Assembly (NCBI GenBank): GCA_040902765.1
Contig: JBBDWO010000028.1
Location: 43,946-107,945, forward strand
DNA: 64,000 nt
Direction: 5' to 3'
DNA from: Acidimicrobiia bacterium
GTDB taxonomy: Bacteria; Actinomycetota; Acidimicrobiia; Spongiisociales; UBA11373
Part shown: one piece after another, positions 46,771 to 53,412 of the stretch
Layout: every line of letters begins with the position of its first letter
How positions within the stretch are numbered: the stretch's first letter is position 1
Notes under the pieces: generated by a model
What the model was told of the DNA's origin: nothing
Seen by the model: only the letters and a program-made list of their open reading frames with translations
Databases searched by the model: none
Program-made: the position numbers and the translations under genes

Positions 46771-48543
46771 ATGGCCTATCGGCGGGAAGACATCGAACGC
46801 GTCCGCGATGCCACCGATCTGGTCGAACTGGTCGCCGAGATCACCAAGGTCAAGCGAAGCGGCCGCAGCGTCATGGCGGTGTGCCCGTTCCATCAGGAGA
46901 AGACGCCCTCGATGTCGGTGGATGCCGCTCGCGGCCTCTACCACTGCTTCGGCTGCGGCAAGAGCGGGGATCTCTTCACCTGGGTGCAGGAGACGCAGGG
47001 ACTCGACTTCTCCGACTCGCTGGAACTGCTGGCACGCCGGGCCAACGTCACCCTCCAGCGCGATCCCGAGGCGGCCAAGCGCCGTGATCGGCGCGAGCTG
47101 CTGGTCGATGCCACCGAGAAGGCGGTGTCGTTCTACGTGGAGCGGCTCCGAGAGGGCAGGGACGCCGGGGGAGCCCGTGGCTACCTGCGGGGGCGTGGGT
47201 ACGACGCCGACGTGGTCGACCGGTTCCGACTCGGCTACAGCCCGCAGAGCGGAGACGCCCTGGTGGGCCATCTCCGGGCGCACAAGGTGCCCGAAGACGT
47301 GATGGTCACGGCGGGCCTGGCGATCCGGGCGGGCACGGGCCGGGTGTTCGATCGATTCCGCGGAAGGATCATGTTCCCGATCTTCGACGTCCGGGGCGAT
47401 GCCGTCGGATTCGGGGCGCGTCTCCTCGACGGCGACGGTCCCAAGTACCTGAACTCGCCGGAGACGCCCATCTACCGCAAGTCGCAGCTGCTCTACGGAC
47501 TCAACTGGGCGAAGGGTGAGATGGTCCGTGCCGGTAACGCGGTCGTCGTCGAGGGCTACACCGACGTCATCGCCTTGCACCTGGCCGACATGCCGGTGGC
47601 GGTGGCCACCTGTGGCACCGCTCTCGGCGAGGAGCACCTGGATCTGCTCCGACGGTTCACCGAACGGGTGGTGCTCATGTTCGACGCCGACGCCGCCGGT
47701 GAGGGCGCCAGCATCCGGGGCTTCGACCGCAGTGTTCCCGGTGACCTCGACCTGAGGGTCGCCTCCCTGCCCGTCGGCAGGGATCCGGCTGACGTGGTTG
47801 CGGCGGGTGAGGTCGAGCTGCTGGCATCGGCGGTGCGGGATTCCACCCCGCTGATGCAGACCCGGATCGAGGCCGAACTGGCGCGGTTCGACTACCAACA
47901 CGACCACGAGGCGGCGGCGAGAGCGCTGCGGGCAGCGGCGGCGATCGTCGCCACCCACCCGGACCGGACCGCTCGGACCGAGTATGCGCGTTTCCTGGCG
48001 AATCGCCTGGTGACCCGGTCGGTCGACGAGGTCGTGGAGCTGGTCGAGTCGCTGCACGCCACCCGGGCACGGTCGAGTGTGCCGGGTGAGGGCGCACCGA
48101 AGCCGGAGCGGGAGTTGACCGGGATCGAGAAGGCCGAGCGCGAACTGCTCCGGCTGCTGCTGGCGAACGATCCCGGGGTGCGGGACATCGACGCCGCCGG
48201 ATGGTTCGGTCTACCGGACCACGCCGCCGCCTTCGAGCTCATCGCCCCTGCCCTCACCGGGCTGGAGCCGGGCGAGCCTCCCGACCTGGGGTCGCTGCTC
48301 GGTTCCGACGAGTCCCCGAGTGCCGCCACCCTGCGTGCCCTCGCCCTGCTCGACGTGCCACTGCCACAGGCCGACGAGGTCATTCGCCGGGTCCGGGTAG
48401 GGGCCCTCGACCGCGAGATCCACTCGCTCAAGGTGAGGCTCGCCGGGGTCGACGCCGACCGCGAACCCGAGGCACATTCCACTGTCTTCGGCGAGTTGAT
48501 AGCGTTGGAGCGTCGGCGCCGCGAACTGTGGAGTTCCTCCTGA
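46771..48543 (+). CDS. dnaG: DNA primase
   Basis: Zinc-ribbon [13 protein letters not shown]...CFGCG; TOPRIM domain EGYTDVIAL. Confidence 0.9.
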
Positions 48544-49676
48544 TCACCGAAGACGAGGTCCTCGAAACGCTGAGCCAACGGGCCCGTCAGCGCGGGTTCC
48601 TGATGATGGCCGAGATCCTCCAGGAGCTCGAGGACGCCGAGGTGTCGCCCGAGGCGTTCGATCGGGTTTTCGACGCGCTCCAGTCGCAGTCGGTGGAGGT
48701 CCGCGAAGACTCCCCGGAGGACCACTACGGGACGACCCCGGACAGCGAAGGCATCGAGGTCAGCGACGCGGTGCGCATGTACCTCCAGGAGATCGGGCGG
48801 GTGCCGCTGCTCGACACTCAGGCCGAGGTCGAGCTGTCGATGCAGATGGAGTCGGGGATCAGGGCGGTCGAGAAGCTGGCCACCGCACCCGACGATCTCG
48901 CCACCGCCGAGCGGGTGATCCTGGAGCGTTCGGTTCGCCAGGGAGCGCGCGCCCAGCAGCACCTCGTCGAATCGAATCTGCGGCTGGTCGTGTCGATCGC
49001 CAAGAAGTACGTGGGGCGGGGGATGCCGCTGCTCGATCTCATCCAGGAAGGCAACCTTGGCCTGATGCGGGCGGTGCAGAAGTTCGACTACCGCCGTGGC
49101 TTCAAGTTCTCCACCTACGCCTCGTGGTGGATTCGCCAGTCGGTGACCCGGGCCCTCGCCGATCAGGGCCGCACCATTCGGGTCCCGGTGCACATGGTGG
49201 AGGCGATCAACAAGCTCGCTGCCGCTCAGCGCAACCTGAGCCAGGCCCTGCACCGCGAGCCGACGATCGAGGAGATCGCCGAGGATCTCGAACTGGAGCC
49301 GTCCAAGGTCAGCGAGCTGCGTCGCATTGCTCAGGACCCGTTGTCCCTGGAGACGCCATTGGGGGGCGATGACGATTCGGCAACGCTCGGCGACTTCGTC
49401 GAGGACTACGACGCCGAGGCACCGGTGGCGGCAGCATCGTTCCGGCTCCTCCAGGATTACCTGCGGATGGCCCTCGAAGAGCTGAGCGAACGCGAGCGGC
49501 AGGTGCTCGTCATGCGTTTCGGGATCGCCGACGGCCAGGTGCGCACCCTCGAGGAGGTTGGTCGCCACTTCAAGGTCACCCGGGAACGGGTGCGTCAGCT
49601 CGAGACGAAGGCCCTGGCAAAGCTCAGACAGCCCGCCAGGGCGGATCGTCTCCGGGGGTATCTGGGGGACGGGTAG
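48528..49676 (+). CDS. Principal-type sigma-70 factor (RpoD/SigA-like)
   Basis: Region 1.2 [16 protein letters not shown], region 2 ...[14 protein letters not shown], region 4 HTH; start codon uncertain (GTG at 48528 or ATG at 48603). Confidence 0.8.
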
Positions 49677-49780: not shown

Positions 49781-49924
49781 CTAGACGCGTGCGCGTCTTC
49801 CGAGCAGGGCGCCCACGATCAGGAGCACCAGGCTCACGATCAGGAGCCACTTGAGGGCTCCGACGAACAGTCCCACACCGCCGACCACCAACGCCAGTAG
49901 GAGGATCAATATTGCGATCCCCAT
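49781..49924 (-). CDS. 47-aa hydrophobic small membrane protein (two predicted TM helices)
   Basis: MGIAILILLLALVVGGVGLFVGALKWLLIVSLVLLIVGALLGRRARV; its ATG overlaps the CsbD stop (TGATG); not in the ORF track because it is under 60 aa. Confidence 0.4.
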   Translation of the reverse strand: MGIAILILLLALVVGGVGLFVGALKWLLIVSLVLLIVGALLGRRARV

Positions 49925-50145
49925 CAGGTGTCGTCGTTCTCGTCGTCACCGAAGGCCGATTCGAATCGCTTCTGAATCGCCTCGACGGTCTCACCGGTCC
50001 GCTCCTTGATCCGGCCGACCAGAGCCTCGAAGTCACCTTCTGCAACCGTGAGGTCGTCATCGGTGAGCTGGCCCCATGTCTTCTTGGCGTGGCCCTTGAC
50101 CTGATCCCAGCGGCCCTGCCACTTCAGCTTTGTTTCCTGGTCCAC
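49924..50145 (-). CDS. CsbD-family stress protein
   Basis: KGHAKKTWGQLTDDDLTVAEGDFEALVGRIKERTG is a CsbD motif; GTG start after GGAGAG. Confidence 0.65.
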   Translation of the reverse strand: MDQETKLKWQGRWDQVKGHAKKTWGQLTDDDLTVAEGDFEALVGRIKERTGETVEAIQKRFESAFGDDENDDT

Positions 50146-50277
50146 AGGTCTCTCTCCCTGTTGGGTGCCAGGCTCAGGTACCCAACGGTGGGTGGCGGCA
50201 AACCTGGTGCGACGGTGCGGCGGGGGAGGAGGCCTTGCGACCGGTGGTACCCTTCCCGGCCGATCGGTGTGATCCAT

Positions 50278-50352
50278 TCCGGGGTAGCTCAACGGCAGAG
50301 CAGCGGACTGTTAATCCGTTGGTTGGGAGTTCGAATCTCCCCCCCGGAGCCA
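50278..50352 (+). tRNA. tRNA-Asn (anticodon GTT), CCA encoded
   Basis: Acceptor TCCGGGG/CCCCGGA, anticodon loop CTGTTAA, T-loop TTCGAAT, 3' GCCA. Confidence 0.9.
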
Positions 50353-50364
50353 GAAAACCCCTGG

Positions 50365-50547
50365 TCAGCGGGGGTTTTGTCTCCTCTCGGGCAGTGGCAC
50401 AACTGCTCCCAGGACGCGCTCAGGACGCGATTGGGTCGCGGAGTGAACTTCCAGGCGGTCCATCACCTCGCTGAGATCGCCCTCAAAAAGGTGGGTGTAG
50501 GTGTTGAGGGTCACGGTCGCGTTGCGGTGCCCGAGCTGCTGTCGCAC
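50365..50547 (-). pseudogene. Tyrosine recombinase (phage integrase) C-terminal remnant
   Basis: LGHRNATVTLNTYTHL is the box II region with catalytic Tyr; only 60 codons survive; located 13 bp from the tRNA-Asn 3' end. Confidence 0.6.
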
Positions 50548-50720
50548 CGGACGGCGAGATCATCCGCTGATCGGGGCAGGCGGCCGACGGCCTGGCCTCC
50601 ATCACCGCCACGCGCCTAGCCACCCGGACGGCACGCGCCGCCCCGTGCGACACTTCGCCACGGCATGCGATCCCAGGACGACGGGCCGTGCCGCCGCTGC
50701 GAGGGCGAAGGAGGCGGAAG

Positions 50721-51008
50721 GTGAGGTATCAGCTACGTGACTTTCGGATCAGGTCAGGGGCCCTGGAGGAGTTCGTCGACCAATGGCGTGCGGGGGTGGT
50801 GCCGTTGCGAGCGGAGTTCGGTTTCGAGATCATCGGTGCCTGGTCGAACCCGGAGACCGACCGCTTCGTGTGGCTGCTGGCCCACGAAGGGGACTTCGAG
50901 GCGGTGGACCGTACCTACTACGAGTCGGCCGACCGGGGCCGGCTATCGCCGGACCCGGCCCGACTCATCGAGGAGGCGCACAAGGAGTTCGTGGTCCCGG
51001 CCCTCTGA
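50721..51008 (+). CDS. NIPSNAP/Dabb-like small protein (putative)
   Basis: GTG start after GAAGGAGG; pattern YQLRDFRIRSG...FVWLLAHEGDFEAV is reminiscent of the NIPSNAP family (weak, from memory). Confidence 0.45.
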   Translation: MRYQLRDFRIRSGALEEFVDQWRAGVVPLRAEFGFEIIGAWSNPETDRFVWLLAHEGDFEAVDRTYYESADRGRLSPDPARLIEEAHKEFVVPAL

Positions 51009-51415
51009 ACCACCTCGGAGGGTCTTCGCTCAGATGTCGGGAGGGAAACCGGGGAGGATATGGCCGACGGGCACGAAGGGTTCGCTCCACTTTCGCGCGA
51101 GATCCTCCATGGTCTCCGTCAGTAGGGCCGGGGTCACGAGCCCTGCTCTTGGATGGAGGTCAGCGCACTAGTGACACGGTCGACAGCATGTTCGACGGGT
51201 CGTTTCCTCACGACTGCTGGTACTACGTGCGGTCGTGTGACGTACGCCGGCGAGCCGGACAACCTCTGCCCTGACCGGCAAGACAAACCCCTCCTCCGGG
51301 CGGCCGTCACAACCGATGAGAAGTATCCGTCAGTCGATGGGGGGCCAGCACGCCACCCAACGATGAGGGACCAGCCCGAGGCGCGGAGCCGAATCTGCGG
51401 CTGGACCCGTCGGAC

Positions 51416-52219
51416 CTAATGCTCTTGCAGCCACCGGAGGAGTAACTCGGTGTAAGTCTCCGGCCGTTCCATGTTCACGATGTGCCCCGCGCCTTCCACG
51501 ACCAGCTTCCGGGAGCCGGGGATGCGGGCGAGCATGTAGTCGGCCTGGCCGAGCAGCACGTCCATCTCGCCGTTGCCGACGACGACCGCCGTGGGTGGGA
51601 CGATCTCGTGAAGCCGACCGCTGGCTAACGGTTCCACCGGCAGGCGCGGCGGGACGTCAGACCGGACATGCGCCCACGTGTACTCGTTTACGAACATACG
51701 CTCGAGCCGGCGTCGCACCTCCGGAATCCCGCCGGCAACCCGCAACGGTGGGAAATCCCAGAGCAGCCTCCGCAGGAGAGCCTTGTCGCCTGCGGCTCCG
51801 GCACGCGCGATGGCTCGGAAGGGCTCGTTGAACGTGGGACCGAGGTCGTACCCAGGCATCGGATGTGCGCCGATGAAGAGGCTGCGCACCGCGCCGGGAT
51901 TGGTGAGTGCGTGGTCCAGGGCCACCTCACTCCCCATCGACAACGCCACAAAGTGGGCGGCATCGACGCCGAGGGCGTGTAGGAGTGCCGCGAGGTCTTC
52001 GTTATGTCGATACGGACGGTCCCCCAGCGGGGTACGGCCATACCCGCGGACGTCGTAGCGAACCACGAAGTGGTCGGCGAAAAGCGCCTCAGCCTGCTCG
52101 TCCCATTGCCTCAGGTGCAGCCAACCTCCGTGGAGGAGCACGACGGGCGGACCCGAACCGCCGGTCTCGTAGTAGAGATCGGTGCCGTCTACGCCGATGA
52201 CGCCAGAACTAGGCCGCAT
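51416..52219 (-). CDS. Alpha/beta hydrolase
   Basis: HGG oxyanion motif (VVLLHGGWLH); nucleophile elbow ALSMGSE; start at the internal ATG. Confidence 0.7.
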   Translation of the reverse strand: MRPSSGVIGVDGTDLYYETGGSGPPVVLLHGGWLHLRQWDEQAEALFADHFVVRYDVRGYGRTPLGDRPYRHNEDLAALLHALGVDAAHFVALSMGSEVALDHALTNPGAVRSLFIGAHPMPGYDLGPTFNEPFRAIARAGAAGDKALLRRLLWDFPPLRVAGGIPEVRRRLERMFVNEYTWAHVRSDVPPRLPVEPLASGRLHEIVPPTAVVVGNGEMDVLLGQADYMLARIPGSRKLVVEGAGHIVNMERPETYTELLLRWLQEH

Positions 52220-52264
52220 GTGAGACGGAGCGTACGCCGATAGTTTTCTCTTCCCCCTCCTTGT

Positions 52265-52296
52265 CTGGTTGGGAGTTCGAAACTCCCCCGGAGCCA
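52265..52296 (+). repeat. Degenerate direct repeat of the tRNA-Asn 3' end (CTGGTTGGGAGTTCGAAACTCCCCCGGAGCCA)
   Basis: Matches 50320-50352 with one substitution and a 2-nt C-run difference; attR-like. Confidence 0.7.
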
Positions 52297-52366
52297 CCGC
52301 TCAGCCACACGACTCTCCTTCCAGGTCGAGGTGCGGCGTCTGCCCTGGCGAACGATCGCCGTCGCA

Positions 52367-53209
52367 TCAGAGTTCCGCGTCGAAGGTGTTGCAGGCGTCG
52401 GGACCGCCGCTGTTCATGCCCACGAGGAACCACTCCTGGCGCTGCTCGGATGATCCGTGCGTCCACGTTTCGGGGTTCACCTGGCCCTGCGTCTGCTCCT
52501 GAATCCGGTCGTCTCCCACGGCGGCGGCGGCGTCGAGTGCCTGGGCGAGTCGGGCGTCGGTGATGGGCTCGAGGAACCCGGTCGCCACCGCGTGACTTGC
52601 CCAGACTCCGGCGAAGCAATCGGCCTGCAGCTCGGTCCGCACCGAGTGGCCCTCGGCGCCTGCACCGCCTCCGGCAGTCAGGGTGCCCATCAGGTTTTGC
52701 ACGTGATGGCCGTACTCGTGGGCGATGATGTAGGCCTCGGCGAATGGGCCGCCCTCGGCACCGAGGCGCGTGCGCAGCACTTCGAAGAACCCCAGGTCGA
52801 TATAGATCCCGGCGTCGACCGGGCAGTAGAAGGGGCCTACCGCACTCGTCGCGTGGCCGCATCCGGTATTGACCCCCTCTTCGAAGAACGTCGTGGTGGC
52901 CAATTGGTACCCATCGAGCGCACCGCCCCAGTACGCCTGGATGCTGTTCACGTAGCCGACGATGCGACAGTCTTCGCGGGTGGCGGCGTCGGCGCCGGTC
53001 CGGCACTCGTCGGTGAGCTCGGTGTCCTGGTCGCTGCCCACCGTTTCGCCATCGAGGCCGGCAGGCAACTGCGCCGGGTCTCCGCCGAGCACCAGGAATA
53101 GCACCAAGGCGAGGATTCCGCCCAGGCCGCCGACCGCGATGCCGGCGCCCTTGCCGCGGCGATCGCGAACCTGGCCGGGATCGAGTTGTGCGTCTTCTCG
53201 GATCGTCAT
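52367..53209 (-). CDS. YpfJ-family putative neutral zinc metallopeptidase
   Basis: HEYGHHVQ zincin motif and N-terminal TM anchor; the overlapping 351-aa ORF in another frame is spurious. Confidence 0.7.
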   Translation of the reverse strand: MTIREDAQLDPGQVRDRRGKGAGIAVGGLGGILALVLFLVLGGDPAQLPAGLDGETVGSDQDTELTDECRTGADAATREDCRIVGYVNSIQAYWGGALDGYQLATTTFFEEGVNTGCGHATSAVGPFYCPVDAGIYIDLGFFEVLRTRLGAEGGPFAEAYIIAHEYGHHVQNLMGTLTAGGGAGAEGHSVRTELQADCFAGVWASHAVATGFLEPITDARLAQALDAAAAVGDDRIQEQTQGQVNPETWTHGSSEQRQEWFLVGMNSGGPDACNTFDAEL

Positions 53210-53412
53210 TGCACTCCAATCCGCTCGGACATCCGCTCGGGCCACGCTCATACCCCGACGCCACGGGTAGGAAACACAGACCAGGCGACGGTCACGCCTG
53301 CGACGGCGGTGGTAGACGCCGGACCGGGCCGACGCGAATGCTGCTCACATGCGTTTGAGCAGCCGTTTTTCTGGGTAGGTGCGCGGTCCCACCATGTCGA
53401 GGAGGTCACGAC

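Follow-up and report, generated by a model that had tools for sequence, protein, structure and literature searches.

The locus directly downstream of the tRNA-Asn gene in the stretch of DNA analysed here (64,000 nucleotides in full length, hereafter the window) is best explained, with a probability that we put at roughly 80%, as an immobile relic, left behind where an element of a family with an HTH_17-type xis gene and an int gene integrated site-specifically into tRNA-Asn, once or several times. A decayed integrative element had been proposed for this locus from the letters of the sequence alone (the sequence-only reading), and this proposal is upheld by the repeated tRNA end, by the integrase homology of the peptide encoded next to the tRNA, and by the occurrence of the same module beside tRNAs elsewhere. 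The features of the locus are as follows.

50278..50352, plus strand: tRNA-Asn (GTT) (ARAGORN; Rfam RF00005, 71 bits; repeat family D3/D16)
50354..50378, no strand: hairpin AAAACCCCTG-gtcag-CGGGGGTTTT (RNA fold, 10-bp stem)
50365..50553, minus strand: tyrosine integrase C-terminal stub (tblastn against the L084 integrase; PHROGs; 28 homologues)
50554..50720, no strand: spacer between stub and cargo, presumed deletion junction (no Pfam match for its ORFs; no similarity to the integrases of relatives)
50721..51008, plus strand: NIPSNAP-like gene (dimeric alpha-beta barrel), 95 aa, intact (PF07978, E 3.2e-5)
51009..51415, no strand: 407 bp with no recognisable gene (ORFs without Pfam match at E<=1)
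51416..52219, minus strand: alpha/beta-fold hydrolase gene, 267 aa, intact (PF12697, PF00561)
52266..52296, plus strand: degenerate copy of the tRNA-Asn 3' end, attR-like (repeat match; no tRNA call by ARAGORN or Rfam)
52367..53251, minus strand: putative neutral zinc metallopeptidase gene, right-hand host flank, outside the islet (PF04228, E 6e-68)

A displaced copy of the tRNA-Asn 3' end

ARAGORN and Rfam agree with the sequence-only reading that the tRNA-Asn gene ends at position 50352, and the gene (50278-50352) is the intact, regenerated integration target on the attL side. The duplicated block comprises its 3' 33 nt (50320-50352), which start at the variable loop and end with the encoded CCA. 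The downstream copy measures 31 nt and lies on the same strand, 1946 bp apart from the 33-nt tRNA end. In it, a 24-mer that differs at one position precedes a 12-mer that matches exactly but is shifted in register by 2 nt. The shift is due to the C run at the T-stem/acceptor junction, which has gone from seven C to five, and the substitution is a T to A change in the T-loop (TTCGAAT to TTCGAAA). The repeat had previously been placed at 52265-52296, with one substitution and two missing Cs; the changes and the end of this description stood, the start did not, as C52265 and T50319 differ.

When up to three mismatches are allowed, the 24-mer is found in the 64 kb at only two sites, namely the tRNA end and the copy, and none of 100 dinucleotide-preserving shuffles contained two matches to it. 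The copy at 52266-52296 furthermore bears the T-stem of this lineage (GGGAG/CTCCC), the same as in the functional tRNA-Asn. Tested as a genuine second tRNA, the downstream repeat proved not to be one: no tRNA was called there by ARAGORN or, at E<=1 over 52200-52350, by Rfam, and no similarity to the 5' part of the tRNA was detected to its left. Search of the interval 50353-52300 for further att-like fragments found none. The locus thus combines two marks of an Islander-type island, an intact tRNA gene and a displaced 3' fragment of it in direct orientation. A Logan contig of 2981 bp (L090, run SRR27977660) is 100% identical to window positions 49981-52961; since this contig is an independent assembly, a mis-join in the metagenome-assembled genome (MAG) is unlikely as the source of the structure.

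A C-terminal integrase stub beside the tRNA

The ORF next to the tRNA (minus strand, 50365-50547) encodes 60 aa from a GTG, carries LGHRNATVTLNTYTHLF, and has its stop codon 12 nt from the tRNA end. The box II motif with the catalytic Tyr, LGHRNATVTLNTYTH, is present and LGH...NTYTH is retained; the Y, H, L and F of YTHLF were invariant across 29 aligned sequences. When the rebuilt 387-aa integrase of the related locus L084 was used as tblastn query, its residues 326-387 aligned with window positions 50368-50553 at 71% identity (E 6e-23). Pfam alone failed to recognise the peptide, with no match for the 60-aa ORF and only 12.3 bits (E 0.14; cut-off 27.1) for PF00589 on a 32-aa core of the stub, and would have told against the sequence-only reading, which named the lack of a recombinase HMM match as a refutation; but PHROGs integrase HMMs matched it (phrog_1, E 3.5e-4; phrog_216, E 7.8e-4). 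Among 5.8 billion proteins searched, 28 were homologues of the stub (52-90% identity), several of them with PF00589. The longer homologues reach upstream into the HDLRHT box, and the homologue P0011 (70% identical) matches phrog_1 with E 1.6e-22 and carries PF00589. PHROGs, the homologues and the 71% tblastn alignment are thus in accord with the earlier claim of a 60-aa C-terminal fragment of a tyrosine integrase near tRNA-Asn. By homology, the predicted peptide is a real tyrosine-recombinase C-terminus, and it represents a gene fragment rather than an integrase.

The features of a functional enzyme (box I Arg, Lys, HxxR and the N-terminal DNA-binding domains) are missing from the stub; HDLRHT and everything else before residue 326 are absent, and an in-frame stop is found at about 50560. 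The stub keeps the catalytic Tyr motif without any of the other catalytic residues and is therefore a dead fragment. Further out-of-frame remnants, which the sequence-only reading had suggested seeking between 50353 and 50700, were not recovered by tblastn beyond position 50553. Local alignment of the DNA upstream of 50553 with five relatives likewise revealed no integrase sequence (score 24; shuffle mean 20, maximum 36), and an apparent 13-mer match upstream of the stub, GATGATCTCGCCG, was dropped as noise because the alignments lay within this shuffle background. An integrase remnant was also looked for at the tRNA-Met gene of the window (60533-60609), and none was found.

The integrase family to which the stub belongs is an ordinary, normal one. 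A family search with HMMER among 1.84 billion cluster representatives yielded full-length integrases of 376-387 aa that match the C-terminal 100 residues at 52-63% identity. In IMG/VR, a scan for the same family gave only one match, which was 26% identical; therefore no phage link was established.

The tRNA trailer, the last codons of the stub and its stop codon are all covered by the hairpin at 50354-50378, which is probably a bidirectional terminator. RNA folding of 50345-50400 gave -22 kcal/mol with a z of only -1.0, so the structure is not statistically exceptional, and the hairpin was not called by a simple terminator scan.

Two intact cargo genes and the right-hand flank

Pfam (PF07978 and PF12697) confirmed the identity previously assigned to the cargo, a NIPSNAP-like protein and an alpha/beta hydrolase. 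The first gene starts with GTG at 50721, 6 nt past GGAGG. Its match to PF07978 reached 24.5 bits (gathering cut-off 22.3) over profile positions 1-43 of 102 only, and the best name for the predicted product of 50721-51008 is NIPSNAP-like or dimeric alpha-beta-barrel protein. A 95-aa NIPSNAP-like gene was called in L090 too. The hydrolase matched PF12697 with 70 bits (E 5e-19) and PF00561 with 62 bits. Ser120 (in ALSMG) and His272, numbered as in a 293-aa version of the ORF, were invariant among its homologues (alignment A2), and it thus has the HMM match, the nucleophile elbow and the catalytic His of the alpha/beta hydrolase fold. No NCBIfam equivalog cut-off was reached, all matches being far below.

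The N-terminus of the 293-aa ORF had been called spurious, rightly so: 26 codons are extra and read over the tRNA fragment, and the true start is the ATG at 52219. The hydrolase is 100% identical to P0029, for which the NCBI annotation gives a length of 267 aa and which comes from a MAG with the label Acidimicrobiia, and most of the aligned homologues, at 54% identity, begin near the same Met.

For the ORFs in both gaps of the islet (50554-50720 and 51009-51415) Pfam returned nothing. The GC content of the islet (0.64-0.69) is the same as that of its flanks, and composition is therefore no independent sign of foreign origin. An empty site was sought with the flanking Zn-peptidase among GTDB genomes and JGI metagenomes and none was found, the best matches being 70-76% identical, non-syntenic and with no tRNA-Asn nearby; an exact look-up of this peptidase gave no record.

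The same module beside tRNAs in other contigs

Related loci were collected via homology to the stub. In seven of them (L081, L085, L086, L087, L088, L089 and L172) the stub adjoins tRNA-Asn in the same orientation as in the window, and the order dnaG-sigma70-small ORF-tRNA-Asn-stub was found wherever the contig reaches host genes (L089 ends at the tRNA). Members of the stub's integrase family also adjoin tRNA-Met, in L082/L083 and in L084. A type III restriction-modification system borders the stub of L082/L083. L084 carries an HTH_17 gene followed by a 387-aa int with one frameshift, which ends 15 nt from tRNA-Met. The T-arm of this tRNA-Met is identical to that of the tRNA-Asn in L086, and both tRNAs share much sequence in these genomes.

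L171 combines an HTH_17 gene with an int interrupted by a 1-nt frameshift. The tRNA-Asn sequence found 17 nt past the stop of this int is limited to the 3' 48 nt, which reach from the anticodon stem to the tRNA end, with unrelated sequence beyond; this piece looks like attP or like a site inside a tandem array. Classified by homology, the HTH_17 genes of L084 and L171 are excisionase-type (xis-like), and the related loci indicate that the window retains the final stretch of a standard xis-int-att module. Transfer or replication genes were not seen beside the related integrases in the available DNA.

The closest relative of the window is L089, with 94.8% nucleotide identity across tRNA and stub. 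Its stub is longer (from residue ~272), and its neighbour is a Cap15-like CBASS effector gene instead of the NIPSNAP-like gene. Genes past the stub differ in every locus and include an aminotransferase gene, IS110 remnants, a DUF5808 gene, a thioredoxin-like gene and the Cap15-like gene, the IS remnants lying past the stub in L086. In the other loci, no further copy of the tRNA 3' end turned up in a search within 6 kb.

Repeated insertion of one integrase family

Truncation points of the stubs all differ in the eight loci compared (residues ~272, 274, 282, ~300-303, ~306, 308, ~313 and ~327). All eight fall within the last 115 residues, and the sequences at the upstream junctions are unrelated. 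We rejected a shared truncation hot spot near HDLRHT, since the DNA junctions of L081, L086, L082 and L088 differ and have no common upstream sequence.

Between the window and the other long contigs, identity of the host proteins is 68-70% for sigma70 and 53-62% for dnaG, and dS is saturated at 1.0-1.6. The stubs lie closer, with 71-79% identity and a dS of 0.6-1.0, the exception being the divergent stub of L085 (53%); L085 is an outlier by its stub, yet groups with L081 by sigma70. A single ancient stub inherited vertically was therefore rejected, as stub and host similarity are incongruent and stub dS lies below host dS. Because stub similarity does not track host similarity, the integrase family must have struck the site repeatedly. 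The tRNA-Met copies of the integrase nest among the tRNA-Asn copies, and the stub of L081 (at tRNA-Asn) is 91% identical at the nucleotide level to the integrase gene of L084 (at tRNA-Met). These comparisons indicate that the family has moved between genomes and between tRNA-Asn and tRNA-Met, leaving stubs independently.

Survival of the tRNA-proximal end alone would fit erosion from the far side, because deletions extending into the tRNA would presumably be lethal. The ubiquity of the stub is only apparent, because the loci were found through it.

Origin of the islet and alternative explanations

In the sequence of events that we propose, an element of this family would carry attP directly after the int stop codon, as a copy of the 3' part of the tRNA. 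Integration would regenerate tRNA-Asn, set the 3' end of int 12 nt away from it, and displace the original tRNA 3' end by about 1.9 kb, where it would now form the attR-like copy. Most of the element, including xis and int residues 1-325, would later have been lost to deletions, and slippage together with a point change would have degraded attR. With the integrase gone and attR damaged, the islet can therefore no longer excise, and the intact NIPSNAP-like and hydrolase genes would now act as ordinary chromosomal genes. The order of these events, and whether one element or several contributed, we infer from the present arrangement.

The alternative that survives best is that the stub, the attR-like copy and the two cargo genes derive from separate, successive integrations and deletions at a hot spot. 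The identity block spans 33 nt in the window and 48 nt in L171, and the attR-like copy may therefore be trimmed or belong to another element. Similarly, L089 combines near identity over tRNA and stub with a longer stub and a different neighbour, so the element behind the stub may not be the source of the present cargo; variable genes past the stub in all related loci, among them the type III restriction-modification system, the IS fragments and the aminotransferase gene, point the same way. A single event is however simpler, as one pair of direct repeats encloses stub and cargo and nothing else, and the interval 50353-52300 holds neither a second att-like fragment nor a second integrase trace. 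We consider such a composite origin possible, if somewhat unlikely.

It is improbable, to a far greater degree, that the stub has been kept beside tRNA-Asn by selection, whether as a small protein, as terminator DNA or as a landing pad for related elements. Such selection would explain the low dN/dS among stubs (0.10-0.36) despite their varied cuts, as well as the confinement of all eight cuts to the last 115 codons. Between the window and L088, whose truncation points differ, 10 changes were synonymous and 3 non-synonymous, a departure from neutrality (p 2e-4), and the last codons of the stub pair with the tRNA trailer in the hairpin described above. Against this, the N-termini of the stubs differ in every genome, no Shine-Dalgarno-like sequence was seen by eye before internal start codons in the stretches read, stub and host similarity are incongruent, and several database copies are more eroded or frameshifted (P0008, P0022 and P0028). 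The ubiquity of the stub, collected as the loci were by stub homology, is sampling bias. The low dN/dS is most simply explained by divergence that preceded decay, when the integrases were still working, as illustrated by the 91% nucleotide identity between the L081 stub and the near-full-length L084 gene.

Tandem tRNA copies are known in many bacteria, and the 31-nt copy has the lineage-specific T-stem of the functional gene; that it is all that remains of a second tRNA-Asn gene formed by tandem duplication, the integrase stub being unrelated, is nevertheless hardly credible, given that similarity ends sharply at the variable loop without trace of the 5' two-thirds, that Rfam reports no partial tRNA at E<=1, that the copies lie 1.9 kb apart with two unrelated genes between them, and that the stub adjoins the tRNA just as in the att-bearing modules elsewhere.

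Comparison with known integrative elements

We thus return to the reading of the locus as an immobile remnant of integration into tRNA-Asn. As a general rule, a regenerated tRNA and a displaced tRNA fragment mark the ends of an island (PMC4383910). The locus resembles the Islander-type islands of that study in its tRNA 3' target, in the intact tRNA and displaced fragment arranged as direct repeats, in a tyrosine integrase gene, here a stub, that abuts the tRNA, and in unrelated cargo between the repeats. In contrast to these islands, only 1.9 kb is left, the integrase consists of its last 62 residues, the fragment is mutated, and an excisionase gene is missing. Reduced as it is in integrase, displaced fragment and excisionase, the locus therefore falls outside the active islands. 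It matches the textbook tRNA-targeted island as a decayed example of the type and is functionally no longer a member.

The modules of L084 and L171 have a further parallel. In pSAM2-like actinobacterial xis-int-attP modules, attP directly follows int. L084 and L171 share with them an HTH_17 excisionase-like gene, int, and a tRNA-derived att site 15-17 nt past the int stop, and the window keeps the last part of this layout; unlike pSAM2 modules, L084 and L171 showed no replication or transfer genes in the available DNA. Several relatives are also reminiscent of defence hot spots at tRNA genes, with a Cap15-like gene (L089), a type III restriction-modification system (L082/L083) or IS remnants (L086) past the stub, whereas the window has two genes of metabolic type there and none that can be recognised as a defence gene.

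In annotating the locus, one should label the 60-aa ORF a pseudogene fragment of an integrase and set the start of the hydrolase gene at 52219; the 31-nt tRNA fragment can be taken as one boundary of a small region that was acquired. The repeated use of tRNA-Asn, and also of tRNA-Met, by one integrase family is a modestly useful comparative result, and the dnaG-sigma70-tRNA-Asn locus offers a place to seek variable or defence genes in uncultured Acidimicrobiia-like genomes. Set beside the known systems, the locus is an ordinary decayed tRNA islet, a scar of a common and well-understood type, and as such it is in line with the current understanding of tRNA-targeted integration and poses no challenge to it.

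Genes to the left of the tRNA-Asn gene

Three open reading frames (ORFs) precede the tRNA-Asn gene and its adjoining integrase stub in the window:
48201-49676, plus strand: sigma-70 ORF, 491 aa
49781-49924, minus strand: 47-aa ORF, directly downstream of the CsbD-like ORF
49924-50292, minus strand: CsbD-like ORF, 122 aa

The sigma-70 ORF shares 343 nt with dnaG. Given that the sigma factors of relatives measure 370-387 aa, translation probably does not cover the ~100 codons at its N-terminal end. The start of the CsbD-like ORF (71-83 aa in relatives) is over-called, because it runs 15 nt into the 5' end of the tRNA-Asn gene. The 47-aa product, judged by eye, is nearly all hydrophobic.

Variation of the target tRNA genes

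The tRNA-Asn T-stems (window 50320-50345 and the genes of six related contigs) are distinguished by compensatory pair changes:
GGGAG/CTCCC: window, L089
GAGAG/CTCTC: L088
GTGAG/CTCAC: L081, L085
GTGGG/CCCAC: L086, L087

CCA is encoded by the window tRNA-Asn gene, and GCCG stands at that position in L088 and L089.

The stub's integrase family targets tRNA-Met elsewhere. The window tRNA-Met gene (60533-60609) is 81% identical to the tRNA-Asn gene over 42 nt, from the D-arm to the anticodon stem; no integrase trace was found at this gene. It is followed by a 146-aa ORF and an ORF for an ABC-transporter-like ATPase.

Near-complete integrases of the family

Contig L171 (854-2700) carries an HTH_17 gene and an integrase gene of full length that has lost 1 nt from a run of C at codon ~271. 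Two near-complete integrase genes were found, in L171 and L084, and each is frameshifted, either through real decay or through an assembly error. Downstream of the L171 integrase lies only the 3' 48 nt of tRNA-Asn, a piece that is an attP-like or a tandem-array site.

Affinity of the hydrolase and the zinc peptidase

The MAG protein from this part of the window (51416-53251) is labelled Acidimicrobiia, yet the nearest named relatives of both the hydrolase (~55%) and the zinc peptidase (best genome matches, 70%) include proteins from MAGs of Candidatus Limnocylindria or of other Chloroflexota. Wrongly labelled bins, sparse sampling and gene transfer are possible causes of this discrepancy.

Defence genes beside integrase stubs

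A same-family stub lies near tRNA-Met in contigs L082 and L083 (1-7913), where a DDE transposase (IS) has inserted between stub and tRNA, and a type III restriction-modification system (ResIII, RE_endonuc, N6_N4_Mtase) occupies the stub's far side. L089, the closest relative of the window, is 95% identical in nucleotide sequence across tRNA and stub. Its stub-adjacent gene (L089:1-681, minus strand) matches PF18153, the Cap15 cyclic-dinucleotide receptor domain, at E = 1e-11; it is a CBASS-type defence effector, located in the same hot spot as the window's stub.
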